DNA of 64,000 nt from a candidate division CPR3 bacterium GWF2_35_18 (GCA_001771135.1 MESW01000008.1:87630-151629); one strand, 5' to 3'. Shown: positions 283 through 38,837, counted from the stretch's first letter. Made by a program: numbers and translations. The notes: a model not told the origin generated them from the sequence alone.

Positions 283-807
283 ATGAAGAAATTTTTAAAG
301 AGCCGTGAAGGTTTTACCTTAATCGAACTTTTAGTTGTCATTGCGATTATTGGTATCTTAGCCGCTGTAGTTGTGCTCGCGATCAACCCAGTAGCTATGA
401 TGCAAAAAGGTCGTGATTCCAATCGTAAATCAGACTTGGCTACTCTCTCAAAAGCAATTGATATTTATATGACTCAAGGGGCGACAGCTGTTCCTGGTGG
501 TGCTAATGTAAATCAAACTTCTCAGGGTATGACTAATTGTTGTAGTGGAACAGTGTCTACATGTACTGGTCCTACAACCTCTACAACCGGAGGATGGATA
601 ATTCCATTCGCTGTTTCTTGTGGAGTTGACCTTTCACCATATATCGCCAAAATTCCTATAGATCCAAATAATACTGCGACCTTAAGATATCATTATGATA
701 CTAATGCAACAGGAGATCGTTATTGTCTTGAGGCTGATATGGAACATGCTGATAGCGGACCGAGTTACAAAGTAGGAAGTGATTTAACGGGATGTGCTAC
801 ATACTAA
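283..807 (+). CDS. Type IV pilin / pseudopilin (prepilin-type N-terminal cleavage/methylation domain)
   Basis: N-terminus MKKFLKSREG|FTLIELLVVIAIIGILAAVV is a class III signal peptide with Glu at +5. GGAGG RBS at 266-270. Confidence 0.8.
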   Translation: MKKFLKSREGFTLIELLVVIAIIGILAAVVVLAINPVAMMQKGRDSNRKSDLATLSKAIDIYMTQGATAVPGGANVNQTSQGMTNCCSGTVSTCTGPTTSTTGGWIIPFAVSCGVDLSPYIAKIPIDPNNTATLRYHYDTNATGDRYCLEADMEHADSGPSYKVGSDLTGCATY

Positions 808-954
808 AGATTAATAGATGACGTAAATTGCATGCATTTACTAGAAAGAGGGGTTCTCATGAAACCCCTCTTTTGTATTTTTATTGACACCTTAATTCTT
901 CTCCCCTACAATGAATATCTAGATAATTCGATTGAAATGTCTGGAGGTTATAAC

Positions 955-1590
955 ATGCTCAAACTGCCAAAATCTATAAGTAACCCACTTGGTTTTACCC
1001 TGGTTGAATTACTAATTGTTATAACTATTATTGGAATTCTAGCTGGGGTGGTTACTCTGAATGTTACAAGTACCATTCCAACCTCTCGTGATGGTCGTCG
1101 CATAGCAGATATTAAAGCCTTAGAGGGTGCTTCGGAGCAATATTTTTCCGATAATAAAGATTATGTTCGTGGAAATACTTGTTATAATGATACCGATCCT
1201 TATTGTAAAGAGAATAGTCAATCAAATTACGGTGTTCCCTTTCTCAATACCCTTTTGACTTCGGGTTATATCAAATCGGATACCAAAGATCCTCTTAATG
1301 ATGGAACGTATGCGTATTGGTATGGTACTCCTTACGCTCCCAATCCTCCTGACGAATACATTCTTTTTGCTAGATTAGAGAGAAAAACTTCTGGAGAAAA
1401 TATTTATCAGCTTTATAATACTTCAGGAGCAGCTGTTAGTCCGGCTGTTTATTATTACGCTGTTTTTTCTGATTACAACTATTGGTACAATAATTTTCGG
1501 GATAACTCTTCTGCAACGTCTTGTACGCATGCAGGAGAATGGGCACATATACTTGTTGGAACAGCCGGTTGTTTACATAAAACATGGTAA
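955..1590 (+). CDS. Prepilin-type pilin-like protein
   Basis: Internal start MLKLPKSISNPLG|FTLVELLIVITIIGILAGV with GGAGG about 10 nt upstream. The track ORF from 832 carries an implausible leader. Exact start uncertain. Confidence 0.7.
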   Translation: MLKLPKSISNPLGFTLVELLIVITIIGILAGVVTLNVTSTIPTSRDGRRIADIKALEGASEQYFSDNKDYVRGNTCYNDTDPYCKENSQSNYGVPFLNTLLTSGYIKSDTKDPLNDGTYAYWYGTPYAPNPPDEYILFARLERKTSGENIYQLYNTSGAAVSPAVYYYAVFSDYNYWYNNFRDNSSATSCTHAGEWAHILVGTAGCLHKTW

Positions 1591-2507
1591 TTATCTTTTT
1601 TCTTTTTATTCTAGGGATTTCGATTGGTTCTTTTCTGGATGTCATTATTTCCAGAGTTTATCTTGATGTTTCGCCTAAATTGTCTAAAGATATTATCTCT
1701 TCTCGATCGGCATGCGCTTCTTGTAAGTATACTTTAAATTTTTGGGATCTTATTCCTCTACTCTCTTTTTTATTTCTGCGGGGAAAATGTCGTTACTGCG
1801 GGGCAAAAATTCCCTTCCGTTGTTTTTTGATGGAACTTTTTACAGGTATTTTGTTTGCTTTATATGGAATATTTGTTTTAAAAGGGTTTTCCCCATCAGC
1901 TTTACAAAACTGGATGCTCATTTTGTACTCTCTTATCGTAATTAGTTGCTTGATTATAATTTTCCAAGTAGATCTGCATAAATACATTATCCCAAATCCT
2001 ATCATTTTTTCTTTAATTGGTTTAGGTTTATTACTAGAACCAATTTGGGGATTGTTAAATTTAAAACACCAAATGATTCCACTCAATCATTTTTTATTTG
2101 ATATTTACTGGTTAATAAAAAGTTTATTAACCAATTTTGGGATAGAAATGTCTTTATCATATTCGCAACTACCGGTAATTTCTCCTTTTTTGAATCCGAT
2201 ATTCAGTGCTTTTTTTCTGGGATTATTCTTTTATTTAATCGTTTTTTTGACACGTGGAAAAGGAATGGGGATGGGAGATGTAAAACTTGCTTTCTTTATG
2301 GGGCTTTTTTTAGGTTGGCCGGAGAGTATTTTAGCACTATACCTTGCTTTTGTCTCTGGAGCTATTGTATCATTGATAATGGTATTAATAAAAAAGAAAA
2401 AGCTAAAGCAAAAAATTCCTTTTGGTCCATTTTTGCTCTTTGGTTTTTTTTGCACTTGGTTCTGGAATGCTGAAATTATATCTATTTTTGCAAGAATTGC
2501 TCATTAA
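1584..2507 (+). CDS. pilD: Prepilin peptidase (A24 family, PilD-like)
   Basis: Polytopic membrane protein. N-terminal CASC...CRYC zinc-binding motif typical of prepilin peptidases. GMGMGDVKL matches the catalytic GGDVKL region. Confidence 0.85.
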   Translation: MVIIFFLFILGISIGSFLDVIISRVYLDVSPKLSKDIISSRSACASCKYTLNFWDLIPLLSFLFLRGKCRYCGAKIPFRCFLMELFTGILFALYGIFVLKGFSPSALQNWMLILYSLIVISCLIIIFQVDLHKYIIPNPIIFSLIGLGLLLEPIWGLLNLKHQMIPLNHFLFDIYWLIKSLLTNFGIEMSLSYSQLPVISPFLNPIFSAFFLGLFFYLIVFLTRGKGMGMGDVKLAFFMGLFLGWPESILALYLAFVSGAIVSLIMVLIKKKKLKQKIPFGPFLLFGFFCTWFWNAEIISIFARIAH

Positions 2508-2529
2508 GTAAAAAGTTTTAAACAAAAAA

Positions 2530-3123
2530 ATGCCCAAGAATTTTTCGTGTAAATATTTTATTTCTTCCGCTGGTTTTACCTTGGTTGAATTATTGGTTGT
2601 GATGGCGATCATTTCAATCGTAACTATTATATCATTTCCTTCTTTCTCAACTTTTTCTCGTCAGCAAATATTGCAATCAGAAGCGGAAAAAATGGCTTCT
2701 CGGATAAAATTGGCTCAATCAAATGCCAGGTCTGGAAATCAGGGAGAAGATGAAACTGAAGAAGTGCAAGGGTTTATGATTGACTTTATAAACGTTGATT
2801 CCACTAATAAGTATTATCTCAAAAAGCATCGTAACGATCTAACAAATCCCTATAGCTATGTGGTGACAGAAGATGAATATACGCTAGATCAAAGTATTAC
2901 GAATATTACTTTTGAGGTTGGAGGAACTGAAGTTACAACTAAGGTATTTTATTTTCAATCTTCTCGCGGATATCTTTCATGTCTAACTGCTGTTCCTGTA
3001 AACGGGAATGATCAAGCTGAATGTGTTGTGTCTCAATTCAAAATTACTTTATTAAATTCCCAAGGAGAGGCTAAATATGTCTATATTGAAAGAGGAGGAG
3101 CTGTTTATGCAAGCGATTCTTAA
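2530..3123 (+). CDS. Pseudopilin / minor pilin (prepilin-type)
   Basis: ...ISSAG|FTLVELLVVMAIISIV N-terminal motif. Confidence 0.7.
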   Translation: MPKNFSCKYFISSAGFTLVELLVVMAIISIVTIISFPSFSTFSRQQILQSEAEKMASRIKLAQSNARSGNQGEDETEEVQGFMIDFINVDSTNKYYLKKHRNDLTNPYSYVVTEDEYTLDQSITNITFEVGGTEVTTKVFYFQSSRGYLSCLTAVPVNGNDQAECVVSQFKITLLNSQGEAKYVYIERGGAVYASDS

Positions 3124-3679
3124 AAAAATTCAAAAAGAACAGTCCGGAATGTCAATTATTGAGATTCTTGCGGCCGTAACATTTTCAATAGTAACTTTAG
3201 GAGCTTTGATAACCTTGGGTATTGTAACTTCTCGATCTTCGGACGCAGCAAGAAAAAGATCCCAAGCGGTTGAATTCGCAAAACAGGGAGTTGAAGCTGT
3301 CAGAGCTATTCGTGATAATGTTTCTGAGTTTCAAGGTCAAGAGTTTGCGGTTTGTGGAGAAAGCTGTTCTCCAGCCTGTGCCGGTTGGGATTGGGTATTG
3401 ATAAACGCCTGTCCTTGGAGTAATGGAACTTCGAATATGACTTTCTTTTTAGGTAGTAGTAGTGATAAGTGGAATCTACAATATGTGAATGATGGTGGAG
3501 ACGATTTGCATACCAGCTATCAGATTCCTGCAGATACTAATTTCTATCGGAAAGTTATTGTTGTTGAAGGACCTAGTGCTGATGGAAGTGATAAAGAAAT
3601 CGAGGTGCGTATCTCTTGGAAAGTGAGAGAGCAAGTTTTTACAGTTTCGGAAAGAATTCTTCTTACTGATTGGAGATAA
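3107..3679 (+). CDS. Pseudopilin / minor pilin (prepilin-type)
   Basis: MQAILKKIQKEQSG|MSIIEILAAVTFSIV with Glu +5. AGAGGAGGAG RBS lies 6 nt upstream of the ATG at 3107. Overlaps the previous gene. Confidence 0.65.
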   Translation: MQAILKKIQKEQSGMSIIEILAAVTFSIVTLGALITLGIVTSRSSDAARKRSQAVEFAKQGVEAVRAIRDNVSEFQGQEFAVCGESCSPACAGWDWVLINACPWSNGTSNMTFFLGSSSDKWNLQYVNDGGDDLHTSYQIPADTNFYRKVIVVEGPSADGSDKEIEVRISWKVREQVFTVSERILLTDWR

Positions 3680-3689
3680 TATTTAAATT

Positions 3690-4253
3690 ATGAATTATAA
3701 ATTTAGTATTACGAAAAATGAACAAGGTTTTACATTGGTTGAATTACTTGTTAGTCTAGTTATTTTTAGTATTGTGATGGGTCTTGGAAGTACGGCGTTG
3801 CTTTCGATTATGCAAAGTAATAATAAAGCAAAGTTGATTAACCGTTTGCGTACTGATGGTAGTCGCGTGATTGAAGAGATTGAAAGAGAAATTAAAGTTG
3901 CAGATGAGGTTCAGGCTTTAACTTCATATAACCTTGATTACCGAAAAAACGGTAATGAATATTATCGTTACAGCATCATTGATAATTCGAGTACTGATAA
4001 CAATAATTCAATCGTAAAAACACAATGTACTGGTTTGGGAATAGGATGTACAACAAGTTTATATACCTTAACTCCTACTGATAATCAAAATGGTTTGAAC
4101 GTGGCTCTCCCTCCAAGCTCTAGTTTTACTTATTATGACTATGGTGAAGTGAAAATAATCTTTACGTTTGAACAACCAGTGGGTTTGCCGGATAGACAAG
4201 AATATCAAGGAAGTATTACTTTAAATAGTAGTGTTACCTTACGAGATTATTAA
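3690..4253 (+). CDS. Pseudopilin / minor pilin (prepilin-type)
   Basis: MNYKFSITKNEQG|FTLVELLVSLVIFSIV. Confidence 0.7.
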   Translation: MNYKFSITKNEQGFTLVELLVSLVIFSIVMGLGSTALLSIMQSNNKAKLINRLRTDGSRVIEEIEREIKVADEVQALTSYNLDYRKNGNEYYRYSIIDNSSTDNNNSIVKTQCTGLGIGCTTSLYTLTPTDNQNGLNVALPPSSSFTYYDYGEVKIIFTFEQPVGLPDRQEYQGSITLNSSVTLRDY

Positions 4254-4270
4254 TATAGTAAGATAACAAA

Positions 4271-4301
4271 ATTGTTATACTCGAATTAACCTATTTTGCA
4301 A
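4271..4301 (-). promoter_or_regulatory. Promoter-like element in antisense orientation within the pilus locus
   Basis: Minus strand TTTGCA-17nt-TATAAC. 29 of 33 nt identical to the rpsP promoter element at 14890-14920, including the spacer. Confidence 0.35.
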
Positions 4302-4404
4302 ATTGAAATGACAGTAATTCGGATATAACTACCTGCGTAGGCTCAACTACTTTCATTTTTAAATTCAAGGAAGTTGGGTATATAATTATTTCAAGGAGTA
4401 GTAT

Positions 4405-5346
4405 ATGTTTCAATTCACCAAAAATGAACGAGCCCATTTGTCCCTCAAAGAAGAACAAGGTCAAGCTCTTGTCCTTGTGATTCTGATTATGTTAGTAGCT
4501 TTGACTGTTGGTGTTTCTGTTTCGTCTCAAGCTTTGATAGGTTCCAAAGAAGCTGTCTCTGAAGAACAGTCAGCTCAAGCATACGCCGTTGCCGAATCAG
4601 GAGCAGAGATTGCGTTGAAGCACTTAAAAACTTGTACTGAAGGAGTAGATTGTCTGACAGCTTCACCAGTTACTGGAAGCATTGGAGGTTCTACTTATAC
4701 CTATACTATTTCTTCGGCTTCGCTTTTGGCTTCGAATATTTATGAAACTAGACTTCAAAAAGATGAGGTTGTTCAGATTGATCTTAGTAATATTGCGGGT
4801 CTTACCAGCTCCAATAACGATGTTAAAATATATTTTTGGAGTGATGATTCTGATAGAGGTGTAAATGCAGATACTTCAAGTAATACATGTAGCCTTCCTG
4901 ATATTCCTGATGCGGCGATAGAATTTATCTATTTAGCTTATGATACTGGTTCCAATCCTTCTTATTTTGTTCGAGAGAAACAAGTTTATGATAGTTGCAC
5001 TGTTAGGCCTACTTCGAACAATTTTTCCGCTAGTGTGACAGGAGGAGTTATTGGTGGATATGATTATGACTTTTATGCTAAAAAAAGCGCTTTAGAAGAT
5101 TATTCTTTCAAAATGAATACAGATGATGAACAACGATTACTCAGGATCCGATCTTGGTACAACAATACTTGGATAGCTGTCGTTCTACATGATGTAAGTA
5201 TTCAGTTTCCGAATCAAGGTTATGAAATCGTATCTTCTGGAACAACGGGTGAGAATAAGCGTACAGTAAAGGTCACAAAGTCGAATCCTTATTTACCGGC
5301 AATCTTTGATTATGTTTTATTTTCCGGTGGAGATTTGCAAAAGTAA
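4405..5346 (+). CDS. PilX-like minor pilin / pilus assembly protein (N-terminal hydrophobic helix, no Glu+5)
   Basis: N-terminus ...EEQGQALVLVILIMLVALTVGVSV resembles the PilX_N type. AGGAG RBS. Position after the pilins. Confidence 0.5.
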   Translation: MFQFTKNERAHLSLKEEQGQALVLVILIMLVALTVGVSVSSQALIGSKEAVSEEQSAQAYAVAESGAEIALKHLKTCTEGVDCLTASPVTGSIGGSTYTYTISSASLLASNIYETRLQKDEVVQIDLSNIAGLTSSNNDVKIYFWSDDSDRGVNADTSSNTCSLPDIPDAAIEFIYLAYDTGSNPSYFVREKQVYDSCTVRPTSNNFSASVTGGVIGGYDYDFYAKKSALEDYSFKMNTDDEQRLLRIRSWYNNTWIAVVLHDVSIQFPNQGYEIVSSGTTGENKRTVKVTKSNPYLPAIFDYVLFSGGDLQK

Positions 5347-5440
5347 GAAAAAATTGCCAGGGATATTAAAAATTGTTAAGCTGATACTTATTAAAATATA
5401 TTTTGAAATGATATCTAAAAACCATCTGAAGGAGCTATCT

Positions 5441-7540
5441 ATGAGCCGTAAAATTTTTCTCACAGCCTTGGCTGTTTTATTTTTGATTATTGTATCCCCT
5501 CCCTCGACTCAAGCGGCTTTACAATCTATTCACTATCAAGGGAGATTGAGAGTAATAAATGGAGCTCTTGTTAATGGTGTCACGAGATATTTCAAAGTAT
5601 CCTACTATAATTCTCAAGTAGGGGGAACACTCTTTTGGGCAGATGGTACATGTTATAGTTCAGCTGTCTCATATGGCAATTTCGAACTTAATTTAAGTAC
5701 CGCTCCTGCTTCTTTGGGTTATTTTGATGCGACTAATTATTGGATGACGTTACAGATGTATTCAAATAGTAGCTGTACAACACTGTTAGATACTTTTCCT
5801 CGAGAGCAGATATCAGCTTCCCCTATTGCGATAACAAGTTCATATTTATCGGGAATTAGTGGTAGCGGAACAAATATTTTAGGTGATGCCAGAATTGGAT
5901 ATGTGACTAATGATAATGGAAGTACGGTAGGTTATGGTAATAGACTCTATTTTTCTGGTGGAGATGATTGGGCATCTTGGGATAGCGATAATTCAGATTC
6001 TATATATATAAGTAGGTATAACTCAGGTAGTGATTATACTGAATTAAGAGTTAATATTGGTGATAACGCCAGTCAAGCAGCGGATAAATTTGTTGTAGGA
6101 ACGACTGATCCTTCTTGGACTCCACGTTTAACAGCGCAGATGAATGGTTATGTTGGGATTAATAAGGGTAGTCCAGAGTATCCTTTAGATGTAGCTGGTT
6201 CTGGAAGTAATTATCTTGCAAGATTTCAAAGTCCTGATGGATATTTATTGTTAGGTCCTGCGAATAGTGGATGGGCTCATTTAGCAACGGATAGAGCACG
6301 TTTTTATATGAATACTGGTCTTACCGTAGATACCGGGAATATTGGTAGTTATAACGAAAATTTAAGTTTGCAAACCTCGGGAACAACTCGTTTTACTATT
6401 TTGAATAGTAATGGAAATATAGGTATTGACGATACGACTCCATCTCATAAACTTGATGTTAATGGTGATATTGCAATGAAAAGCGATATGCGAATGAATA
6501 CTAGTTTTTCCGTCGATAACGGAACATTAAGCATTTTTAATGATAGAATTGATGATGCTTGGGATTATAACAATTTTAGGATTTGTGCTAATTCTAATTG
6601 TAGTTATGGATTTCAGATAGAAACTTCTCCTGCAGGTAATCCTACTCTTAGTGCCATTGGACAAGATTTTATAACTATTAACGATGCTTTGTGGCTAACT
6701 ACGGCGCAAACTAGAGTTATAAATCTGGGTGAATCTATTATATCTGATCTTTGGGGAGCCGATGGAACAGATGATTTTGTCATCCATGGTCCTGGATGGG
6801 ATGGTTCTTCAAATAATAACTATGGTACAGTCGTGGGAGGGCATTTTTATTCTTATGGTGGTATGGATATTGGTTCCGGAAACGGCAGATTAGCAGGACA
6901 AGGACAACTATACGTACAAGGATTATCAACTTTTAATGGAGATATTGTTGTTGGTGAATATAATAGTGGTGTTGGTATGTTAACTTTGTATGGAGATTAT
7001 GATGGTCAATATTCCGCTGCGGGGATTGATATGCATTTTGGTGACGGTGATCTTTGGCATCTGGGTGCGCGTGGTTCTTTAGATGCAGATCCAAGTAAAG
7101 CCATTAAGTTCTGGTTCTATGATGATCCAGATGCTCCTGATCCAGATAGTTGGTCAAATCCTCTTACAATAAATCCACCAGGAAATACTTATGTAGTTAA
7201 AGTAAATGGAGCGATGTATGCAACTTCATATGCTTGTGCTTCGGATGAAAATTTAAAGAAAGATATCGAAGGTATTGATGGCAAAACAGCAATAGAAAAG
7301 TTTAAACAGATAAATGGAGTGAACTTCAAATGGAGAGAAGGAGATGAATCATTACAGCTTGGAGTGATTGCACAGGATGTAGAGAAAGTCTTTCCAGAAG
7401 CAGTAAAAACAGATGAAAATACCGGGTTCAAATCAGTTAATTATGATAACTTAGTAGCTCCTTTAATCGAAGCGGTGAAAGAACAGCAAAGAGAGATTGA
7501 AGCATTACAAAGAGAAATTGAAGATCTAAAAAATAATTAA
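5441..7540 (+). CDS. Secreted fibre-like protein with C-terminal peptidase S74 intramolecular-chaperone (auto-cleaving) domain
   Basis: GAAGGAG RBS and ATG at 5441. Signal peptide MSRKIFLTALAVLFLIIVSPPSTQA. The last about 99 aa, SDENLKKDIEGI...NGVNFKW...GVIAQDVEKVFPEAV...VNYDNLVAPLIEAVKE...coiled coil, match the endosialidase/tail-spike chaperone domain. Confidence 0.7.
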   Translation: MSRKIFLTALAVLFLIIVSPPSTQAALQSIHYQGRLRVINGALVNGVTRYFKVSYYNSQVGGTLFWADGTCYSSAVSYGNFELNLSTAPASLGYFDATNYWMTLQMYSNSSCTTLLDTFPREQISASPIAITSSYLSGISGSGTNILGDARIGYVTNDNGSTVGYGNRLYFSGGDDWASWDSDNSDSIYISRYNSGSDYTELRVNIGDNASQAADKFVVGTTDPSWTPRLTAQMNGYVGINKGSPEYPLDVAGSGSNYLARFQSPDGYLLLGPANSGWAHLATDRARFYMNTGLTVDTGNIGSYNENLSLQTSGTTRFTILNSNGNIGIDDTTPSHKLDVNGDIAMKSDMRMNTSFSVDNGTLSIFNDRIDDAWDYNNFRICANSNCSYGFQIETSPAGNPTLSAIGQDFITINDALWLTTAQTRVINLGESIISDLWGADGTDDFVIHGPGWDGSSNNNYGTVVGGHFYSYGGMDIGSGNGRLAGQGQLYVQGLSTFNGDIVVGEYNSGVGMLTLYGDYDGQYSAAGIDMHFGDGDLWHLGARGSLDADPSKAIKFWFYDDPDAPDPDSWSNPLTINPPGNTYVVKVNGAMYATSYACASDENLKKDIEGIDGKTAIEKFKQINGVNFKWREGDESLQLGVIAQDVEKVFPEAVKTDENTGFKSVNYDNLVAPLIEAVKEQQREIEALQREIEDLKNN

Positions 7541-7560
7541 ATTAATTAGAGGTTTAAATT

Positions 7561-8238
7561 ATGCATAATAGAGTATTTATTATCTTAAGTATTTTGTTTT
7601 TATTATTAATTACAAGTTTAAATATTGGACCTGTTTTTGCCGCTTGTGAAACAAGTGGTTGTTGTCCTGCAGGCTCGCAAAATTCATGTTGTGGTGGTGG
7701 TGATGGTGGTGGTGGTTATACCTATGATTGTACTGCATGTGGTACAACTCCTAGTCCTACGGGTAAATGTTGTATGGAATGGCCAGATGATAGTTGTGGT
7801 TGTCCTTCAGCAACTCATTGTGGCGGTGGCGGGTGCGGTTATGGAGATACATGTGGTTGTACTATTGGAGCCTGTAGTACTGGGGATGATGATGATTGTA
7901 ATCAACCATGTGGTGGGTGTTTTCCTTGCGATGCTTGTGCAACGATTGGAAGTATCCCTGAAGAAAATCCACTGATGTTAAGTTTTACAGATGCAGAATA
8001 TGGAAAGACTACAGAAGAAGAGATAACTTCTTGTCAAAATAGTTTGGTTGGAACAGTAAATGCATCTTCTTCAGATAAAGAGGTTGTATTAAGCAGTCTG
8101 AATACTCCAATTTGGAAATTGGCAATATTCGATACGTATGATTGGATAGACAATAATAAGACTTTACTTTTAGGCGGTATAAGTGGTGTTTTAATTCTGA
8201 TTGCTGTTTCGTTAAAATTAATTTTTAGAAATCATTAA
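7561..8238 (+). CDS. Cys/Gly-rich secreted protein with C-terminal membrane anchor
   Basis: Signal peptide, then about 100 aa with about 26 Cys (CC, CxxC, GGGG runs), then a C-terminal hydrophobic helix LLLGGISGVLILIAVSL. Confidence 0.6.
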   Translation: MHNRVFIILSILFLLLITSLNIGPVFAACETSGCCPAGSQNSCCGGGDGGGGYTYDCTACGTTPSPTGKCCMEWPDDSCGCPSATHCGGGGCGYGDTCGCTIGACSTGDDDDCNQPCGGCFPCDACATIGSIPEENPLMLSFTDAEYGKTTEEEITSCQNSLVGTVNASSSDKEVVLSSLNTPIWKLAIFDTYDWIDNNKTLLLGGISGVLILIAVSLKLIFRNH

Positions 8239-8239
8239 T

Positions 8240-9511
8240 ATGAAAAAGTATCTGCTTTTTTTATCTCTAATTATTATCGGAGTTCTTTCAATCGTATTTT
8301 TTAAATATTATTCCGATGAGATTAATGAAAAAAATAAAACATTAACGACAAGAAATAGCCTTATTTCCCAAAAAAAGGAAAGTTTAAAAACTGAGGATTT
8401 AGATATTTTACTAGACGGTAGCATACATAGCTCTGGTGAATGGTTACTTCGTAATCAGAAGGCAGATGGTTCTTTCAACTATGAACGTGATGTGACTACG
8501 GGTGAAATTACAGATAGCGAGAATAATATAGTGCGTCAATCAGGAACTTTATACGGAGTGGCAAAACTTTATAACTATACTAAAGACACTAGATACAAAG
8601 AAACACTTTTAAAAGGTTTTAATTATTTTGATACACTAGCCGAAACTAAAGATCTAGAGGGAACGACAGTTAGATACTTTAAAGAAGGCGGTAGTGTTCA
8701 AGCAAATACCGTAGCTCTACAGATTTTGGCGTATTTGGAACTTGCGAAAGCTGATCGCGATTTACCCTCTGACTTAAGTACAAAATTAGAAGAAATGGTT
8801 AATTTCATTAAATTATCTCAGCAAAGTAATGGTGCTTTTCAGAACTATTTTTTAAATAAGATCAAGATTGAGTGTTGGGAATCAGATTATAACAATGGAG
8901 AATCCTTTTTTGCTTTAACTAGTTACTATAAATATTCATCCGATGAAACTTTAAGACCTCTTTTAGAAATATCCGCAAATTACTTTTTAGAAAAGTACAA
9001 AGACTTTAATATTGAATTTTACTCTTGGGGGATGATGGGTTTTTCGCAGCTTTATGAAATTACTGGAAATACTAACTACCGAGATTATATTTATCAAAAT
9101 ACTGATAATATGATAAATGTAGCTGGGACGAACTTTCTCGGGATTGGGGCGTATTTAAAATCGACAAATGAAGCAAATCCATTACCAGATTATAGTCAAA
9201 TAGTTCAGACAGAGGGACTGCTATATGTTTATAAAATAGCGGTAATGGATAATCCAGAAAAAGCTTCGACTTATAAGAATGCGATTATAAATAGTCTAGC
9301 GTTTCATGCAGTCTTTCAGTCCCCTTGGGAAGAAACTCTTCCAAACAGAATATATGATGTTGTCAAAGGTGGTTTTTGTAACCGTTCGGACTGTTCTATC
9401 CAAAGGATTGATATGGTTCATCATGCTTTAAGTGCATTTATAGATGCTCTTAATTTTATCGATAATAGTAACCTGCAACTTTCTGTTGCAAATAGTATAA
9501 ATACAAAATAA
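8240..9511 (+). CDS. Membrane-anchored protein with alpha/alpha-toroid (prenyltransferase/squalene-oxidase-like) repeats
   Basis: N-terminal TM helix. Repeated Q..(D/N)G(S/A)F motifs (QKADGSFNYE, QQSNGAFQNYF) typical of alpha-toroid repeat proteins. No LanC-type Cys/His motifs. Confidence 0.45.
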   Translation: MKKYLLFLSLIIIGVLSIVFFKYYSDEINEKNKTLTTRNSLISQKKESLKTEDLDILLDGSIHSSGEWLLRNQKADGSFNYERDVTTGEITDSENNIVRQSGTLYGVAKLYNYTKDTRYKETLLKGFNYFDTLAETKDLEGTTVRYFKEGGSVQANTVALQILAYLELAKADRDLPSDLSTKLEEMVNFIKLSQQSNGAFQNYFLNKIKIECWESDYNNGESFFALTSYYKYSSDETLRPLLEISANYFLEKYKDFNIEFYSWGMMGFSQLYEITGNTNYRDYIYQNTDNMINVAGTNFLGIGAYLKSTNEANPLPDYSQIVQTEGLLYVYKIAVMDNPEKASTYKNAIINSLAFHAVFQSPWEETLPNRIYDVVKGGFCNRSDCSIQRIDMVHHALSAFIDALNFIDNSNLQLSVANSINTK

Positions 9512-9513
9512 AG

Positions 9514-11487
9514 ATGTTCAGGCGACTTAAAGAATCAAAATGGAATAGATTTATAATCTTATACCTGTTTGCAATTATTTGTTTGATATCCCCTACTCTT
9601 TCTTATGCAAAATTGACTGGGACTACCTATGAGATTGAGGACGAACTTTTTGATAATGGAGGCGGAATGTCAACTGGAACTGCCTATCAATTAGATAATT
9701 CTAGTATTAGCCAATGGGTTCAAGGGAAGTTTACTGGCGGAAGTTATGATGCTCTTGTAGGTCACTGTTACAAAGATGTTACTTTACCTGTTTGTTCTGG
9801 AATGAGTTTTTATTTACCTGATCCAAATAATATTTTGCTGGTGAGAGTGAATTGGGGGGCGACAGATCAAAATAACAACGAGTTTGATACTGGAGTGTAT
9901 GGATATGATGTTGATTATCGTATCGATGGTGGAGCGTGGACTAACCTTTATCCAACAGTTAATAATGCCTATGGCGCAAATACTTCTGCAGATCTGGTTA
10001 TTAACCCCACCAGTACTTATACTTTTAGAGTTTGGGCTTTAGATAATGTGGGAAACGTGAACGTTCTTTGTGGGATGGATAGTGTTCAATTTGGAGCTTT
10101 GTGGTTTCAGGGAGTTGATGGATATGTGCGTGCAGAAAATAATCTCGTCTGTGATATCTCTTCTTTTTCAACCGATGGATATGTTGACTTTGATAGTTCT
10201 GGAGCAGGAGGGTTAAAAGGTGGTATTCCTTCTGCCGGAGGGAATATTGACCAAGGTTATGGAGATTTTTCTTCGCGTGGTAATAACGAAGGATGGAATG
10301 TTTCTCCAAACTATCTAATAGCTGAAACTAATCATTACAACTATGCTTGGTTTTACAGTAATTTGAATGGACAAGAAGCAGCGTTAGTTCCAGATGGTGG
10401 AGATGGGACTGTTAACGCCACTGAGCTAATTAATGCGATAAACAGTACCGTAACTACCAGAATTTTTGCCAGCGATACAGATGCTTTTATCTGGGGTCGT
10501 AGAGGAAGTAGTTATAATAGTTGTCGAAATACGAGTGGCGGTTACAACTCAAGCTCAACAACAAGCAGACTTGGTCAGTACGATGAAACATCGGGGCCAA
10601 TTGCTACTTATAATTGTTATAGATCCTATTTTGAGTTTGATACAGGTAATATTCCTGATGATGCCAGTGTTCTTGACGTGAAATTGGGACTAAAAGTAGC
10701 TACGGATCTTTCGACAGTAGACTTCGATGTACGTATTAATAAATTTGATTGGAATTCTCCTATGTCTGCAGCAAATAGAGAAGCAAATTATGATGCAGCA
10801 GGTACTGTTTTTGATCAAGTTTGGCGTAATACTTCTGGGATAAGCACGGGAGTTTATTATAGTAATACGACATCTCTAGATACAAATTGGATTAATAAAA
10901 CGGGAATAACTTCCTATCAGTTGCGTTCTTCAAGAGATGTTTCAGCGATCATTCCTACTACTGCAGAATTTATTGACCTGATGACGGCAGAAAGTACAGG
11001 GACTACGAACGACCCTTATCTAGATGTTACCTATACAAATACTGGAATTTATTATGTCGATGGAGATTTAAATATTAATGGAAGTATCAATGCCCTTCAA
11101 AATAAAAATGTAATTATTTTTGTAAATGGAGATATTACGTTTAGTTCAAACCCAGTTGTGCACAGTTCCAGTAATTTATCTTTTATTTCAAACGGAGATG
11201 TGACTATTAATAACGCTGTAACGCAGATTGATAATTCTTTGATTTTTACAGATGGAAATTTGGTAACCGCTTCTGCCTCTACAAACGCAAATCAACTTCT
11301 TGTTGATGGAAGTTTAATCAGCAAAGGAATATTAAATTTAAGCCGGAAACGAGATATTTCTATTCAGGAAAACTTAAGTTCTCCTACAGAAAAAGTGACC
11401 TTAAATCCGGATGCATATTTTACATTAGGTCTTAATGAAAATCTGTTGGGAATACCTAGAGTTATATGGGAAGAAGTGACTGAATAA
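9514..11487 (+). CDS. Large secreted protein; C-terminal region with beta-helix-like repeats
   Basis: Signal peptide ...ICLISPTLSYA. Repetitive NGD(I/V)T..N motifs near the C-terminus. Translationally coupled to the preceding gene. Confidence 0.5.
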   Translation: MFRRLKESKWNRFIILYLFAIICLISPTLSYAKLTGTTYEIEDELFDNGGGMSTGTAYQLDNSSISQWVQGKFTGGSYDALVGHCYKDVTLPVCSGMSFYLPDPNNILLVRVNWGATDQNNNEFDTGVYGYDVDYRIDGGAWTNLYPTVNNAYGANTSADLVINPTSTYTFRVWALDNVGNVNVLCGMDSVQFGALWFQGVDGYVRAENNLVCDISSFSTDGYVDFDSSGAGGLKGGIPSAGGNIDQGYGDFSSRGNNEGWNVSPNYLIAETNHYNYAWFYSNLNGQEAALVPDGGDGTVNATELINAINSTVTTRIFASDTDAFIWGRRGSSYNSCRNTSGGYNSSSTTSRLGQYDETSGPIATYNCYRSYFEFDTGNIPDDASVLDVKLGLKVATDLSTVDFDVRINKFDWNSPMSAANREANYDAAGTVFDQVWRNTSGISTGVYYSNTTSLDTNWINKTGITSYQLRSSRDVSAIIPTTAEFIDLMTAESTGTTNDPYLDVTYTNTGIYYVDGDLNINGSINALQNKNVIIFVNGDITFSSNPVVHSSSNLSFISNGDVTINNAVTQIDNSLIFTDGNLVTASASTNANQLLVDGSLISKGILNLSRKRDISIQENLSSPTEKVTLNPDAYFTLGLNENLLGIPRVIWEEVTE

Positions 11488-11572: not shown

Positions 11573-12613
11573 ATGGCAGATAATTTTTTAGGTCTTGATA
11601 TCGGTTCCAATAATATTAAAATTGTGGAGTTAAAAAGAACAAGTAACGGTTTATTGCTTCAAGCCTATGGGAGTATCGAAACTCCTAAGGGAGCCTCAAA
11701 ATCAGAGTCTCAAGCAGATCTGGAAGAGATTGCTACTGCTACCAGAAAATTGATGAAGGAAATACATGTAACTACAAATAAGGTAGTAGTTGGTCTTCCT
11801 GAATCAGTTGTTTTTACCAGAGTAGTAGAATTACCAGTAATGAGTGATCAAGAATTAAAAACGGCTATGCGTTGGGAAGCAGAACAATTTATTCCAATTC
11901 CTCTAAAAGATGTGAAATATGATTACGAGGTAGTAAAAAGACCTACCAAAGAGTCTAAAGACTCTAAAGATAAAATGAGTGTTTTTTTTGTAGCCGTTCC
12001 GAATACAACGATTGAGAGATATTTAAAGATTATGAAAGTTGCAGCTTTAGAGCCGGTGGCTTTTGAAACAGAACTTTTAGCCTTGGTTCGTTCTTTGTCT
12101 CCAGAAGGAAACGCTTCCCCATCAACTTTAATTATTAATATTGGAGCGGAAACAACAGATTTGTGTATTGTTTCTAAGGGAAATATTGCCTTTACACGTA
12201 GTATTTCTTCCGGTGGAAACGCTCTTTCAAAAGCAATCGCACAAGAGCTAGGTTTTGAGATGACACAGGCAGAAGAGTATAAAAAGAGTTACGGATTACT
12301 TGAAAATGAGCTTGAAGGTAAGATCCAAGAGATTATTAAGCCAATTTTTGATGTAATTGTTGGAGAGGTTGAGAGAGGTTTACTTTTTTATCAAACACAT
12401 CATCCTACTGACTCAGTTAAAAGAATTATTCTTTGTGGTGGGACTGCAAAACTTCCGGGAATTGTGATGTATTTAGCCGGTGCTTTAGACTTAGAAGTAC
12501 AACTTGGCGATCCATGGAATAACGTCAAAAAAGGATCACCAGATTTAGCCAAGAAACTCGAAGAACATGCCCCTTTGTACGCGGTGGCGGTTGGATTGGC
12601 AATGAGAGTTTAG
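11573..12613 (+). CDS. pilM: Type IV pilus assembly ATPase-like protein PilM
   Basis: N-terminus FLGLDIGSNNIKIVEL, actin-like fold signature of PilM. Size matches. Confidence 0.85.
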   Translation: MADNFLGLDIGSNNIKIVELKRTSNGLLLQAYGSIETPKGASKSESQADLEEIATATRKLMKEIHVTTNKVVVGLPESVVFTRVVELPVMSDQELKTAMRWEAEQFIPIPLKDVKYDYEVVKRPTKESKDSKDKMSVFFVAVPNTTIERYLKIMKVAALEPVAFETELLALVRSLSPEGNASPSTLIINIGAETTDLCIVSKGNIAFTRSISSGGNALSKAIAQELGFEMTQAEEYKKSYGLLENELEGKIQEIIKPIFDVIVGEVERGLLFYQTHHPTDSVKRIILCGGTAKLPGIVMYLAGALDLEVQLGDPWNNVKKGSPDLAKKLEEHAPLYAVAVGLAMRV

Positions 12614-12691
12614 GATACTTTCTAACTCCTGTTGCAAAAAAATAGAAAATGAGCATATAATTTAAATATACCTTAAAAATAGGAGTCTTTA

Positions 12692-13291
12692 ATGGCTGTC
12701 AATATCAACCTTCTCCCAGATATAAAGTCTGATGAGAAGAAAAAGAAAAAACTGCTCCAAACGATAAACATCGTTTCTTTGGCAGTCACAGGATTTATCT
12801 TACTCATTGCAATTGGGGTTTTTGTTATTAACCAGATTTTGAACTCAAATCTTAGTGAGATCAATGAAAGTATTTTGGCTCAGGAAAAAATCGTTGATGA
12901 GAATTTAGAGGCAGAAACGGTCTTAGTTGGTCTACAGAGTCGTTTGAGTTCCATTGACTCTATCCTAGTTACTCGAAAAAAATACTCTGTTTTCCTGACC
13001 AATTTTACCAGTTACGTTCCACAATCAATAATAATTAATGATATGACTGTTGGTTCTGATGGTAGTGTTTTAATAAACGGAGAAGCTCCTTCATATGAGA
13101 AGTTGGCGGGATTTGTTTTAGTGCTTTCTGGGGAGAATACTCTCGAGTCTACAGAAGAAGCTACCGTTGACGTTTCTTCAAATTCGATTTATAGCAATGT
13201 TTCTTTGAACTCGGTTTCACGTGGTGATGACGGTGGGAGTGTTCGATTTACAATCAGCTTTACAGCTAAGGAAGGAGCTTTTCATGAATAA
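12692..13291 (+). CDS. pilN: Type IV pilus assembly protein PilN
   Basis: N-terminal INLLP motif followed by a single TM helix. Follows pilM. Confidence 0.75.
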   Translation: MAVNINLLPDIKSDEKKKKKLLQTINIVSLAVTGFILLIAIGVFVINQILNSNLSEINESILAQEKIVDENLEAETVLVGLQSRLSSIDSILVTRKKYSVFLTNFTSYVPQSIIINDMTVGSDGSVLINGEAPSYEKLAGFVLVLSGENTLESTEEATVDVSSNSIYSNVSLNSVSRGDDGGSVRFTISFTAKEGAFHE

Positions 13292-13973
13292 TATACTTTC
13301 AAAAGTTAAAGAGTATCTTATCCTGATTATTTGTGGTTTCATTTCAGTTATTTCGTTAGTCATCATTATTCCAGGAATTCAAAGTATCTTTTCCACTAGA
13401 GAAGAGATGACTGCTAAGGAAAGAACTAGAGATCTTTACGATCAGAAAATTGATATTCTTTCAAGCCAAAATTTACCTGGGATCAAAAAAGATCTGATTA
13501 ATAGCTTATTAGCTTTGCCATCTTCTTATGATTCTCCAAGTCTTTTGAATGCTTTGGAAAAAATAGCCACGGCTTCTGGAGTTTCCATTTCAGGTCTACA
13601 ATTTTCTCAACCTTCTACTGCTGGAGGTGGTGAAGCCGTTACGACTGCGACCAAAAACACTTTTGCTTTATCTACAAACTCTGATTATGCTCATATAATC
13701 GCCTTATTTAGGAATTTTGAAAATACTCTACCATTATTTACAATTGAAAATATCGGGTTGCGTTCTGGAGGAGAAGGATCTGCTGATCTTTCTCTTTCTT
13801 TTGGAATTTCTTCTTATTATCAATCTTTACCAACTACTCTTGGTGATAAAACAACTCCGGTAGCTGATCTTGCAGTTTCTCAAAAAGAACTTCTTACGGC
13901 TTTGGAAGGATATAGTAACTATCCTTTAGTTCCTGATACATCCGGAGTCGGGAAAACGAATCCTTTTAAATAA
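13284..13973 (+). CDS. pilO: Type IV pilus assembly protein PilO-like
   Basis: AAGGAAGGAG RBS. Start overlaps the pilN stop. Single N-terminal TM. Position after pilN. Confidence 0.55.
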   Translation: MNNILSKVKEYLILIICGFISVISLVIIIPGIQSIFSTREEMTAKERTRDLYDQKIDILSSQNLPGIKKDLINSLLALPSSYDSPSLLNALEKIATASGVSISGLQFSQPSTAGGGEAVTTATKNTFALSTNSDYAHIIALFRNFENTLPLFTIENIGLRSGGEGSADLSLSFGISSYYQSLPTTLGDKTTPVADLAVSQKELLTALEGYSNYPLVPDTSGVGKTNPFK

Positions 13974-19807: not shown

Positions 19808-20998
19808 TTACTTTAATTTTAGCTTTGCATAATTACGTTTTCCAGCTCTGATAATGGTTCCGTCTGAAATATTAATTTCTTGATGCCAATCGGAAATTAC
19901 TTTATCTTCTACCGTAACAGCAGATTGTTCTATTAATCTTTTAGCTTCCGATTTACTACTTACTAATTTACAATTCAGAATAAGATCCGTAATATTAGTT
20001 TTTTTGGTAGAAATTAAGCATTCCTTAATTTTATTCGGAATGCCTTTTTCTTGAACTACTCTTTCAAAAGTATTTTCCGCCTGTTGAGCTTCTTTCTTCG
20101 AATGATAAAATTCGGTAATTGTAAAAGCTAGTTTTTTCTTCAGATCCATCGGATTTTCTTCTCCACTCTGGAGTTTCTTTCTCATAACCTCAATTTTTTG
20201 AAGCTCTACATCTGTTAATAAAATAAAATAGTCGATGATCATCTCATCACTAATACGCATTAGTTTTCCGTACATATCCTTGGGATTTTCTGTTAAAGCA
20301 ACATAATTACTGTAAGACTTACTCATTTTGCGACCATCGAGTCCATTAATAATCGGTGTTGTGAGAACCCATTTTTTTTTGTTATGATAAAGTTGTTGTA
20401 GATTTCGTCCCATCATCATATTAAAAGTTTGATCTGTTCCTCCAAGTTCCAAGTCAACGTTCATAGCTACAGAATCATATCCTTGCAGAAGTGGATACAA
20501 AATTTCGTGAGTGAAAATAGGGAGATTTTTTTTAATCCTTTCCTGAAACATATCTCGCTCAATAAGTTGCTGGAGTGTAGTTTTGGCTGCAAGCTGAATG
20601 ATTTCAGGCATTGCTAGTTTATCAAGCCAGTCACCGTTTCGTTTAATCGTTATCTTTTTAAAATCGAGGATTTTACTAGCCTGAGACTTCCAGGTTTTAA
20701 AATTTTCTTCAATTTGAGCATCGGTGAGCATCGGTCTTGTAGAATCTCGGCCTGTCGGATCTCCGATTTTGACCGTTCCGTTTCCAATCAAAAGGATCAC
20801 TTCATGTCCAAGGTCTGCAAACTGTTTTAGTTTTCGTAAGACAACACTATGCCCTAGAGTCAAAAGTGAGCCAGTTGGATCTATTCCTAAATATAACTTG
20901 ATTTTTCTTTTTGCCATTAACTTTTTGAGAGTTTCTTTGTCGGGAAGAATCTGAGCTACTCCTCGAGTGAGGACTTCATCAATATTTATATTTTTCAT
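19808..20998 (-). CDS. tyrS: Tyrosyl-tRNA synthetase
   Basis: [13 protein letters not shown] (HIGH-type), KMSKS, C-terminal S4 domain. 396 aa. Confidence 0.9.
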
Positions 20999-21184: not shown

Positions 21185-22375
21185 TTACATTCGTGAGAAT
21201 CTCGCGTGAGCTTCTTTAGCAAATTGACTCATGATTTTATAGTTTGCGTTATCATGAATTGAGGAGAGACCAAATGGAATTAAGGTTCTTCCTGTTCCTG
21301 GTTTGAGTAGACCAAACCAGATTTCGGGTGGAGAAATTATTTCCATTAATTTCCCTTGTTGTAATATTGTAGCGCATATCTGAGGTTTGATCACTGTAGG
21401 AATTGCTCCTACAGTCGATAACATCTTTTGTAAGCGAATGTTTTGAGGTTTATTTTTGAGGATAAACCGGATAAAACGAACGTTTTTGAAAAGGCGTTCA
21501 GAGATTTCCTCCAATGTTTGTAGATTAAGATTTTCTTGTGGGAAAACCTCAGCAAACTGGTTTCCATAGGTTTTGATTACGGTTTCATTTTGATTATGAC
21601 CGTTATTAATTGTTCTTGAGCTTATTTCTGGATAACTTTGGGTATTACTTAACCAGATGCCAGAAGCTAGAGTGGCGAGAAGATCGTTTTCGGAATCAAG
21701 ATAAAGAGGTTCAGAATACCACTTTAGAGCTTCAGAATTCCAGAAACGATATGAGATTTGAAAGAATTCTGTGAGAGGAACTCTTTTTGATACTTGCCAC
21801 GCAGTAGCGATGAGGGGTTCAAAACCAAAAGCTGTCATCATCAGATGGTTCATTGCGATAGACAGCATTTGCGGTCCTCCGGGGATAGTATAGCCATTGT
21901 TTACAACCGTGATTCCTGTACGAACTTCAGCCGAAAGTCCGATCGTGGTTTGCACTAGATTCGGATGTTCAAAGAGCTCCCTTATGCTAATGAGTATGGT
22001 TATAGAACCAGGAAAGTCCATAAATTGAGGATTTTTGGCGCAACGAACAACATCCCAGAATAGCTTATTTCTAGTAAGCTGAAAACTGGAAGTAGCAATT
22101 GGGGTATTGTCTGTTTCATCGTAGGAGATCCAGGTTAAGAGTTTCATTTCTCGCATTTCGGCTGCGATTTCTTCTGGTGTTTGTCCGGCCAGAATACCAT
22201 GTCCGTGATGTCCATAAACAGATTCAACTATTTGTTTATGATGAGAGGCAAAAAGTTTCAACTCCTGATTTTGAGTTAAGAGCTTGAGAGAGGAAACGGT
22301 ATGGAAATGCATTCCAGATGCGTTTGCTCTTTGAGTTAATCTTTCAATTTGAGTGGTTAAGATTCCAGTACCCAT
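21185..22375 (-). CDS. Hypothetical protein (396 aa) under T-box control; visibly higher G+C than its neighbours
   Basis: Uninterrupted ORF. AAGGAG RBS 8 nt upstream of the ATG. No family recognised by eye. Preceded by a canonical T-box leader. Confidence 0.6.
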   Translation of the reverse strand: MGTGILTTQIERLTQRANASGMHFHTVSSLKLLTQNQELKLFASHHKQIVESVYGHHGHGILAGQTPEEIAAEMREMKLLTWISYDETDNTPIATSSFQLTRNKLFWDVVRCAKNPQFMDFPGSITILISIRELFEHPNLVQTTIGLSAEVRTGITVVNNGYTIPGGPQMLSIAMNHLMMTAFGFEPLIATAWQVSKRVPLTEFFQISYRFWNSEALKWYSEPLYLDSENDLLATLASGIWLSNTQSYPEISSRTINNGHNQNETVIKTYGNQFAEVFPQENLNLQTLEEISERLFKNVRFIRFILKNKPQNIRLQKMLSTVGAIPTVIKPQICATILQQGKLMEIISPPEIWFGLLKPGTGRTLIPFGLSSIHDNANYKIMSQFAKEAHARFSRM

Positions 22376-22454: not shown

Positions 22455-22870
22455 AAAAAGCTCGTCCTTAAATAGAAAATTTTCTATTTAAGGACGAGCT
22501 TTTAATGAACTCGTGGTACCACCTTTAATTTCAGGTACAAAAAACACTCCAATTATGGAGTGTCCTGCATTTAATCATTTTATACCTGCTTGTTGATTCA
22601 AGTGCTTGACTTTGCAGTGACACTTTAGCCTTTGATAACGGAGGCATTCCGTCCCGCATTTAGTGCGAGAAGCTCCAGAGGGTATTTCGATTTTTTTACG
22701 TTCTGCAGGTTTTCAGGATTCCCTTGCTTTCTAAAAGTTACCGTAAAATTCTACTATTTCTCTTTCATCGCTTTTATACCGAATTGACTTAAATTGAACA
22801 TCAAAATAACGTTAATTCGGAGATATCCAACTACAATCTTATTATTTAATGAAGTTGAATATATAAAATT
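22455..22870 (-). promoter_or_regulatory. T-box riboswitch leader (tRNA-sensing antiterminator) upstream of the 396-aa unknown protein and tyrS
   Basis: Minus strand AAAUUAAAGGUGGUACCACGAG (complement of 22510-22531) against T-box consensus AAUUAGGGUGGNACCGCG. The antiterminator is AAGG[UGGUACC]ACGAG paired with CUCGU-CCUU, a 7-nt bulge. The terminator GCUCGUCCUUAAAUAG/CUAUUUAAGGACGAGC (22460-22499) is followed by U6. The Stem I start GCGAUGAAAGAGAAAUAGUAG carries a K-turn-like GA motif and an AGUA S-turn. Confidence 0.8.
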
Positions 22871-37948: not shown

Positions 37949-38837
37949 AATTTTCTCCTTTAATTATTAGACATGCTCCAAGGCATGCTCCATGATCTAT
38001 GTTGGAAATTACGATATCTTTAAAATGGAAAAATTTAAAGGTATTTTTTTTATATTTTTCAATAGCTGGCGTCAGAAATTTTTCAGCTGATTTTTTCAAA
38101 GATCCATTAATAATAATTCTTTCTGGATTATAAAAATATGATACTATTTGAAGAAAATTATATAAATGCTCTGTAAAAATCAAAATCGCCCTTTGTGCAT
38201 CTGGGTCATCATTTTTACTTTTAAAAATTTGTTTGGCATCTTTATTTTGTCTGCTAATTTCTTGGTATATTTTTGCCAAACCTTTTCCAGATAAAAAACT
38301 ATCAATAATTGTTTCTTTGTCATGTAGCTCTGGAACTAAATATTTCATTTGGGATATTTCTCCCAGGTTATTTGAATAACCTCCAATAAGTCGTCCGTGT
38401 GAATAAAAAGATAATCTAATTCCTGTTCCTAAATTTATAAGTACAAAGCTTTCAGTTTTTTTCCCTAGTCCAAAAACTGCTTCTGCTTTTGCCATTGCGT
38501 TTACATCATTTTCTAAGATGATCTTTCTTCTAAATTTCTTTTCCCATTTTTTTACGAGAGGATAATTAACATATCCTCCCAAAAGAGAACTGTAGGTGAT
38601 TTTTCCCTTATTCACTACACAATTGAAACTAATGCCGATAACTTTTACTGAATCTTCAATTCTTTTTTGAATTAATTCTTCTAATATTTCTAAAAATTGT
38701 AGACTATTATGCTTAAATTGATCTGTTGAGATCTTCTCACTATCGATTAGATTATATCTATTATCAAAAGAACAGATCTCGATTTTTGTCCCACCAATGT
38801 CAATTCCAAGAAAATAGGGTTTATTTAATTTTTTCAT
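37920..38837 (-). CDS. ROK/BadF-type sugar kinase-like ATPase
   Basis: YFLGIDIGGTKIEI N-terminal ASKHA motif. Confidence 0.6.
   Translation of the reverse strand: MKKLNKPYFLGIDIGGTKIEICSFDNRYNLIDSEKISTDQFKHNSLQFLEILEELIQKRIEDSVKVIGISFNCVVNKGKITYSSLLGGYVNYPLVKKWEKKFRRKIILENDVNAMAKAEAVFGLGKKTESFVLINLGTGIRLSFYSHGRLIGGYSNNLGEISQMKYLVPELHDKETIIDSFLSGKGLAKIYQEISRQNKDAKQIFKSKNDDPDAQRAILIFTEHLYNFLQIVSYFYNPERIIINGSLKKSAEKFLTPAIEKYKKNTFKFFHFKDIVISNIDHGACLGACLIIKGENYEKRNFRIN

Follow-up and report, generated by a model that had tools for sequence, protein, structure and literature searches.

A cysteine- and glycine-rich, membrane-anchored protein in a type IV pilus operon of a CPR3 bacterium, and its possible part in a fibre-associated surface module

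Introduction

In a 64,000-nucleotide (nt) stretch of DNA from the candidate division CPR3 bacterium GWF2_35_18 (GCA_001771135.1 MESW01000008.1:87630-151629; the whole stretch is hereafter called the window, and positions are counted from its first letter), a gene at 7561-8238 encodes a secreted, membrane-anchored protein with an extremely cysteine (Cys)- and glycine (Gly)-rich head. The gene is real and conserved, chance and frame error being excluded, and its product appears from sequence searches to represent an orphan family, seen so far only in CPR3-like Patescibacteria. We tentatively propose that this protein is a disulfide-rich accessory component, anchored in type I orientation, of a fibre- and glycosidase-like surface module that is tied to a type IV pilus operon and may serve host attachment.

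Under this proposal, the protein would be exported by the Sec pathway and lose its signal peptide by cleavage, leaving a Cys/Gly-rich head of about 100 residues, carried by a helical, conserved stalk some 70 residues long that ends in a C-terminal transmembrane (TM) helix. The head would be a small, compact domain held by disulfides and perhaps stapled to the stalk via Cys158, and not an unstructured thiolate cluster. The protein would be a dedicated part of a four-gene extracytoplasmic module, made up of a trimeric phage-tail-fibre-like protein, the Cys-rich protein itself, a GH76-like (alpha/alpha)6 protein and a DUF7305 protein, and this module would occupy the position in a type IV pilus operon that is usual for a tip adhesin (pilY1). 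Its likely job would be to dock or organise the secreted fibre, a glycan ligand, or both on the membrane surface when the cell attaches to a host by means of its pili. The analysis shows that the gene is real, that its composition is extreme, that its Cys framework is conserved and under purifying selection, that its gene order is kept and which folds its neighbours have; the topology, the disulfides, the physical partnership and the part in attachment are inferred.

A real gene of extreme composition

The features of the gene and its product are as follows.

7549-7553, forward strand: Shine-Dalgarno-like GAGGT, 8 nt 5' of the ATG at 7561, read from the sequence
7561-8238, forward strand: coding sequence of the Cys/Gly-rich protein, identical to KKP69961.1 (UR67_C0002G0081), annotated 'hypothetical protein'
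7561-7641, forward strand: Sec signal peptide, residues 1-27, from hydropathy and alignments, with predicted signal peptidase I cleavage between VFA and A
7645-7938, forward strand: Cys/Gly-rich ectodomain, residues 29-126, with 21 Cys, 24 Gly and conserved Y53, Y55 and W74, from alignments
7939-8154, forward strand: membrane-proximal stalk, residues 127-198, with Cys158, from alignments, substitution ratios and a structural model
8155-8235, forward strand: C-terminal TM helix (about residues 199-222) and short basic cytoplasmic tail RNH, from hydropathy

The open reading frame (ORF) runs from the ATG at 7561 to a TAA at 8236-8238 and encodes 225 amino acids (aa) before the stop; it begins 20 nt after the stop of the gene upstream, and 1 nt separates its own stop from the next ATG (8240). 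The database entry KKP69961.1 comes from the candidate division CPR3 bacterium GW2011_GWF2_35_18 of the Rifle aquifer, and at least 23 public contigs, from several samples, encode exactly this protein. Its composition is extreme: the whole protein holds 22 Cys and 30 Gly, and all but one of these Cys fall within the 98 residues of the ectodomain. Cysteine makes up 9.8% of the protein, compared with 1.0% over all window ORFs of at least 100 aa and 3.7% in the next richest ORF, and the binomial probability of such a content is 3e-15 for the whole protein and 7e-22 for the 98-residue domain. The cysteines form three CC pairs (34/35, 43/44 and 70/71), two CxC and four CxxC motifs, and are accompanied by a GGGDGGGG run and a DDDD run.

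Could such a sequence be a low-complexity ORF under drift, or an ORF read in the wrong frame, that lacks a specific function? The lack of homologues in curated libraries, the unusual composition and an overlapping 116-aa ORF in another frame (7625-7975) would fit that reading. It is contradicted by the ribosome-binding site, by a bias of substitutions towards third codon positions, by a ratio of nonsynonymous to synonymous substitution rates (dN/dS) of about 0.2, and by the ten invariant cysteines and strict synteny described below, and we give it a negligible probability. In the Cys domain, differences from the orthologue at locus L007 number 20, 22 and 47 at codon positions 1, 2 and 3, with a dN/dS of about 0.19 (about 0.19-0.25 when L007 and the locus L016 are both considered). 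As third-position substitutions dominate, dN/dS among orthologues is low and a ribosome-binding site is present, the frame is confirmed, and the original prediction, which had allowed for a wrong frame, stands on the right one. The competing 116-aa ORF is a by-product of TGT/GGT-rich sequence. Repetition at the DNA level is confined to a (GTG)x8.7 run at 7691-7716, so the domain is not a tandem-repeat artefact; an internal duplication of the Cys domain is likewise unsupported, 72 of 500 shuffles having reached the observed score.

An orphan family of six members

Relatives were sought by an exhaustive phmmer search over 1.84 billion representatives and by synteny, through homologues of the 423-aa protein encoded next door. 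Only five were found among more than 5 billion proteins, giving a family of six with the window protein. The true relatives returned by phmmer were P0022 (a 110-aa fragment of the window protein itself), P0023 (56% identity) and P0024 (51%), the matches P0025-27 being dismissed as repetitive or low-complexity false positives; the positional orthologues reached through the neighbour lie at L007:1971-2627, L009:7322-8011 and L008:4776-5624. A word-indexed search with the single protein gave no match, not even to itself, and carries no weight, because the cluster representative is the fragment P0022; its profile version recovered only this fragment and a truncated gene call from L008. When the family alignment was used to scan GTDB genomes, JGI metagenomes and IMG/VR, the sole addition was the L009 contig, IMG/VR giving no member, and we found no description of this protein family in the literature.

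Two members are incomplete in their public form. P0023 (L016:590-1195), on a 1.3-kb contig, stops inside its TM helix (…LLIGLLMGG, then the stop codon), which could reflect either true variation or faulty assembly. At L008:4776-5624 the public gene call P0028 (126 aa) covers only part of an ORF of 282 aa. The N-terminal half of this ORF carries 32 Cys, CCCSCCDCCC among them, so that automated annotation misses the Cys-rich half of this member.

The original prediction had asked whether the Cys spacing is conserved in orthologues, and the alignments answer that it is. When the six members are compared, at 26-56% identity, ten cysteines are invariant (C34, C35, C44, C57, C70, C71, C87, C113, C123 and C126), and 12 are invariant among the five closest members; Y55 is invariant in all six, W74 is kept in five, and a TPSPTG motif is conserved. 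The Cys domain is 66-67% identical to those of L007 and L016. The most distant orthologue that keeps the Cys pattern is L009, in which the Cys domain is 59% identical to that of the window protein, the stalk 22%, and the neighbouring enzyme-like gene 34%. With the Cys pattern kept and the frame right, the head is a real, constrained domain.

Architecture of the protein

The common architecture, consisting of a signal peptide, a Cys/Gly-rich head, a stalk, a TM helix and a basic tail, holds in six of six members, with P0023 cut within the TM helix as described above. Composition and hydropathy bear out the signal peptide, the Cys-rich region of about 100 residues with its CC, CxxC and GGGG/DDDD runs, and the C-terminal TM helix that had been read from the window sequence. 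An A/V-x-A cleavage site is kept across all family members, and the signal peptide itself evolves freely (dN/dS about 1), as is expected of signal peptides. A lipoprotein was considered and rejected: the window protein has FAAC, and P0023 and L009 have LAAC or VAAC, but since the lipobox Cys is absent in L007 (LAAT), P0024 (FAED) and L008 (YAVT), it is not a feature of the family. The Cys-rich protein gives no N_methyl match in Pfam, unlike five neighbouring genes, and so shows no sign of being a type IV pilin or pseudopilin.

Within the head, a C-terminal sub-module (C113-x3-C-x2-C-x2-C-x2-C126) follows the DDDD run. As nine prolines stand in place of this run in P0023, the run is no metal or Ca site; it is a spacer that separates the large N-terminal Cys module from the small C-x3-C-x2-C-x2-C-x2-C module.

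The segment that follows, which the original prediction had called an acidic Ser/Thr-rich linker, is not a mere spacer. It is conserved and probably helical, with 54-67% identity among close members and a dN/dS of about 0.18-0.20 against close orthologues; helices are predicted with low confidence at about 152-168 and 184-198. The TM segment has a dN/dS of about 0.4 against L007, and the TM helix with its basic tail also occurs in L007, P0024, L009 and L008. Before this helix, neither the sequence nor the NCBIfam sorting-signal models give any sign of an LPXTG, GlyGly-CTERM or PEP-CTERM sorting signal. The topology would accordingly be type I, with the N-terminus outside and the C-terminus inside.

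Disulfides, metal or sugar

A disulfide-stabilised fold is the reading that we favour for the head because of Sec export, the conserved aromatics and prolines, the scarcity of histidine (His; 0-5 per family protein), a paired gain of cysteines, and the published enrichment of CPR (candidate phyla radiation) bacteria in an MdbA-like oxidoreductase and VKOR, a system for making disulfides outside the cytoplasm (bioRxiv 10.1101/335083). Relative to L007 and P0023, the window protein carries two additional cysteines, C29 and C92; these were gained together, a pair gain of the kind read as a mark of disulfides, and the conserved aromatics and prolines speak for a folded core.

The same density of cysteines could instead belong to an extracytoplasmic metal-thiolate binder (metallothionein-like or Zn/Fe-S-like), in which reduced cysteines would chelate Zn, Cu, Ni or Fe on the outside of the membrane, whether to buffer or capture metal or to let the module fold in a metal-dependent way. 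Cysteine accounts for 21% of the domain, which has the cluster C-x3-C-x2-C-x2-C-x2-C and resembles metallothioneins in its density of CC, CxC and CxxC motifs and in its few charged basic residues. Two members have odd Cys counts, the habitat is reducing, the window showed no enzyme that forms disulfides, the weakest possible hint from the PDB is a zinc finger (E 1.1), and two distant homologues of the (alpha/alpha)6 neighbour lie among metal transporters (FTR1, Zip and P-type ATPase). A metallothionein proper is nonetheless argued against by the conserved Y53, Y55, W74 and F121, where few aromatics would be expected, and by the conserved prolines. Metallothioneins have a Cys fraction of about 30%, against 21% in the head, and the Cys-rich protein differs from them further in being exported and membrane-anchored; none of the six members matches a metallothionein or other metal-binding family in Pfam or NCBIfam, at E 10 or E 1. 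His, moreover, is nearly absent, the acidic run can be replaced by nine prolines, the operon context is one of pilus and fibre rather than metal homeostasis, and the signal peptide is of the Sec and not the Tat type, which makes a cofactor-loaded Fe-S protein unlikely. A metal binder is thus a doubtful reading, if one that deserves to be kept in view.

A further alternative is a lectin module of the hevein or wheat-germ agglutinin (WGA; CBM18) type, that is, a disulfide-pinned carbohydrate-binding head whose YxY and CCxxW aromatics would stack on sugars (for example, GlcNAc-containing cell-wall glycans) alongside the GH76-like neighbour. The composition of the head (21% Cys, 24% Gly) is like that of WGA, and the likeness extends to CC doublets, a CC-x-x-aromatic motif, an extracellular location and, through the neighbour with its glycoside-hydrolase fold, a plausible glycan context. 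The CC-x-x-W motif occurs in five of six members (CCTDWGNWG in P0024, compared with CCSKWGSCG in WGA), and both hhalign and BLASTP choose it as the best local match. That match does not reach significance, with an hhalign probability of 1% and a BLASTP E of 0.10 in one pairwise comparison; the remaining cysteines are spaced differently, Pfam Chitin_bind_1 gives no match at E 10, and the PROSITE-type hevein pattern C-x(4,5)-C-C-S-x2-G-x-C-G-x(3,4)-[FYW]-C is, by inspection, found in no member, failing at G-x-C-G; the present family is, besides, bacterial and membrane-anchored. Glycan-binding, lectin-like pilus accessory proteins do mediate host binding in Saccharibacteria (PMC11623550). On balance, a hevein-like head seems improbable.

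Comparison with other known families leaves the head on its own at the sequence level. Searches of Pfam, NCBIfam, PHROG and PDB sequences gave no match for members of the Cys-rich family even at permissive thresholds; there is no PDB sequence match to a knottin, with its three disulfides in knotted I-IV, II-V and III-VI order, and no Pfam match to granulin, a 12-Cys framework with four central CC pairs, of which CCP is present and the flanking signature C-x-D-x2-H-C-C-P-x4-C absent by inspection. A tblastn search of 50,697 phage records likewise found nothing similar, and, as PHROG and IMG/VR also gave no match, the Cys-rich protein shows no kinship with phage tail-fibre assembly or accessory proteins. 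The original prediction had held such a composition to be unusual for an extracytoplasmic bacterial protein, which was overstated, as disulfide-rich domains occur outside the cytoplasm. Cys-rich surface proteins are, in addition, an already known feature of CPR bacteria: Peribacteria, ultra-small like the present organism and from groundwater of the same Rifle aquifer, have secreted or membrane-associated, very Cys-rich extracellular proteins, for which roles in attachment and rigidity have been proposed (Anantharaman et al. 2016, PMC4736985). Those proteins are about 1,655 aa long with 7% Cys and weak similarity to Cys-rich repeats of Myxococcus, whereas the protein described here has 225 aa, a head with 21% Cys, no repeat family and a place in a pilus operon; its head domain is new at the sequence level.

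The pilus operon and the conserved gene trio

The genes around the Cys-rich gene are as follows.

283-5346, forward strand: pilin and minor-pilin genes (N_methyl motifs) with PilV-like, PilD and GspK/PilX-like genes, from library matches
1584-2507, forward strand: prepilin peptidase PilD
4405-5346, forward strand: GspK/PilX-like protein of 313 aa
5306-7540, forward strand: upstream partner, a secreted 744-aa phage-tail-fibre-like protein with a C-terminal Peptidase_S74 intramolecular chaperone domain
8240-9511, forward strand: downstream partner, a 423-aa N-terminally membrane-anchored (alpha/alpha)6 barrel of GH76/GH88/epimerase-like fold
9514-11487, forward strand: secreted protein of 657 aa, apparently in the same operon, with DUF7305 and DNRLRE matches below threshold
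11573-13973, forward strand: PilM, PilN and PilO-like assembly genes, closing the pilus operon

The fibre-like protein matches Pfam Peptidase_S74 at E 1e-16 and PHROG tail-fibre families at E values down to 1e-31; its true start is probably at 5408 or 5441, which would give a signal peptide MSRKIF...TQA followed by cleavage before A. The 657-aa protein has a beta-helix-like C-terminal repeat region and is kept downstream of the trio in the window's clade (507 aa in L007). No terminator-like sites were found between the genes from 7540 to 11487, and promoter scans found no more sites than in shuffled sequence. In L001, PilB, PilT and PilC lie directly upstream of the window.

The order of fibre gene, Cys-rich gene and (alpha/alpha)6 gene holds in six of six loci, a strict synteny that supports the suggested partnership of the Cys-rich protein with the adjacent fibre. 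The fibre ends in Peptidase_S74 in the window and L007 (Pfam) and, by inspection, in a near-identical C-terminal sequence in L015 and L016; the fibres of L008 and L009 (1,333-1,860 aa) share the GNVGIGTTxPxxxLDV repeats and have a different C-terminal domain. PilM, PilN and PilO come after the trio in the window and in L007, and the context of a pilus operon is seen wherever the contig is long enough.

Within this operon, the phage-tail-fibre-like gene occupies the position usual for pilY1-type adhesin genes. Like the PilY1 or tip-adhesin genes of type IVa minor-pilin operons, the genes described here follow the minor pilins and a GspK/PilX-like gene and precede pilMNO, and an adhesion role is presumed for them. 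There is no homology to PilY1; instead, a phage-tail-fibre-like protein and two membrane-anchored proteins fill the position, and the Cys-rich protein has no prepilin signal.

The (alpha/alpha)6 protein has relatives well beyond the trio. In a survey of its distant homologues in 32 metagenome loci plus further loci, most were found to have no Cys-rich neighbour. In three Beckwithbacteria-like loci and L025, however, Cys-rich proteins stand immediately upstream of the homologue (for example, L012:3276-5243, L017:3471-4991 and L025:554-3701). These proteins resemble the window protein in having a Cys-rich module, membrane or wall anchoring and a place directly upstream of an orthologous gene; one set has GDDDD(D) runs, and another has sortase-type C-termini (LPxAG/LPQTG). 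They differ in their N-terminal anchor or LPxAG/LPQTG ending, in Pro/Ser linkers and in an extra beta domain, and their homology to the family was rejected (hhalign probability below 4%). Their neighbours are PMT-type glycosyltransferases, Wzy_C and LytR-CpsA-Psr, with no pilus genes nearby. This recurrent pairing of non-homologous proteins suggests a functional link, with a glycan flavour, between the barrel protein and Cys-rich surface proteins.

The pairing, and the glycosyltransferase-rich surroundings of the Beckwithbacteria-like loci, could also mean that the Cys-rich protein is a substrate rather than an effector, either as a surface glycoprotein, containing Ser/Thr/Pro, that the (alpha/alpha)6 enzyme would process, or as a lanthipeptide-like Cys/Ser/Thr precursor cyclised by a LanC-like neighbour. 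The conserved TPSPTG motif would suit the former, and LanC is also an (alpha/alpha) barrel. Against this, the locus in the window has no PMT genes and no dehydratase or kinase gene, and the protein is Sec-exported and 225 aa long; the lanthipeptide idea in particular was set aside, the neighbour's fold being GH76- or epimerase-like with LanC not among the top matches. We regard a substrate role as very improbable.

Several observations weigh against the proposal of a disulfide-rich accessory protein of a pilus-linked module. The Cys count of the mature ectodomain is even in four members and odd in two (19 in L009 and 33 in L008), which leaves the pairing of all cysteines in disulfides undemonstrated; the 64-kb window showed no gene for a thiol oxidoreductase; and the aquifer from which the organism was recovered is reducing. 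Although P0024 has a stalk with 67% identity, its Cys pattern has been extensively reworked (44% identity, dN/dS about 0.6), so that the exact Cys framework is not indispensable. AlphaFold prediction from four sequences yielded an unusable model (pLDDT 39.5), leaving the proposed fold with no structural model. With about 170 ectodomain residues on a C-terminal membrane anchor, the head may not reach past the cell wall, and the protein is probably not the distal adhesin itself. Synteny, finally, is linkage and not physical interaction.

Other features of the window

Three further regions of the window, all on the reverse strand, were observed.

22487-22777, reverse strand: T-box leader, which at 100 bits exceeds the gathering score and precedes a 396-aa ORF (21185-22375, reverse strand) without a Pfam match; tyrS lies at 19808-20998
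38821-39954, reverse strand: DIT1_PvcA protein (of isonitrile/dityrosine biosynthesis type), flanked by two HAD hydrolases and a ROK kinase, a content resembling secondary metabolism and unexpected for a reduced CPR genome
54246-59950, reverse strand: 1,262-aa ORF without a Pfam match, adjoining an N6/N4 DNA methylase (55196-56149) and an unannotated 317-aa ORF, with GC content slightly raised (0.39-0.40)

A T-box-regulated 396-aa ORF would be unusual, as it is no obvious aminoacyl-tRNA synthetase or transporter. The last region may be a restriction-modification or other defence island.

Significance

Patescibacteria depend for their living on attachment to host cells, in which type IV pili play a central part; to our knowledge, the accessory proteins that give it specificity are mostly unknown outside the Saccharibacteria. 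What makes the present locus notable is its context, a phage-like fibre at the pilY1 position. A bolder reading, which we consider rather unlikely, is that a phage receptor-binding fibre was domesticated by CPR3-like bacteria and made part of their type IV pilus operon, with the Cys/Gly-rich protein as its purpose-built membrane dock or as a new bacterial hevein-like lectin fold, and with the GH76-like enzyme jointly recognising and processing host cell-wall glycans in epibiotic attachment; if true, this would be an undescribed adhesion apparatus in Patescibacteria. If the proteins of the trio do not act together, the Cys-rich protein would be one more lineage-restricted hypothetical surface protein. 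If they do, the trio would be a concrete, testable candidate for the host-recognition device of an uncultured lineage, and its Cys-rich head possibly a new disulfide-rich or metal-binding bacterial mini-domain.
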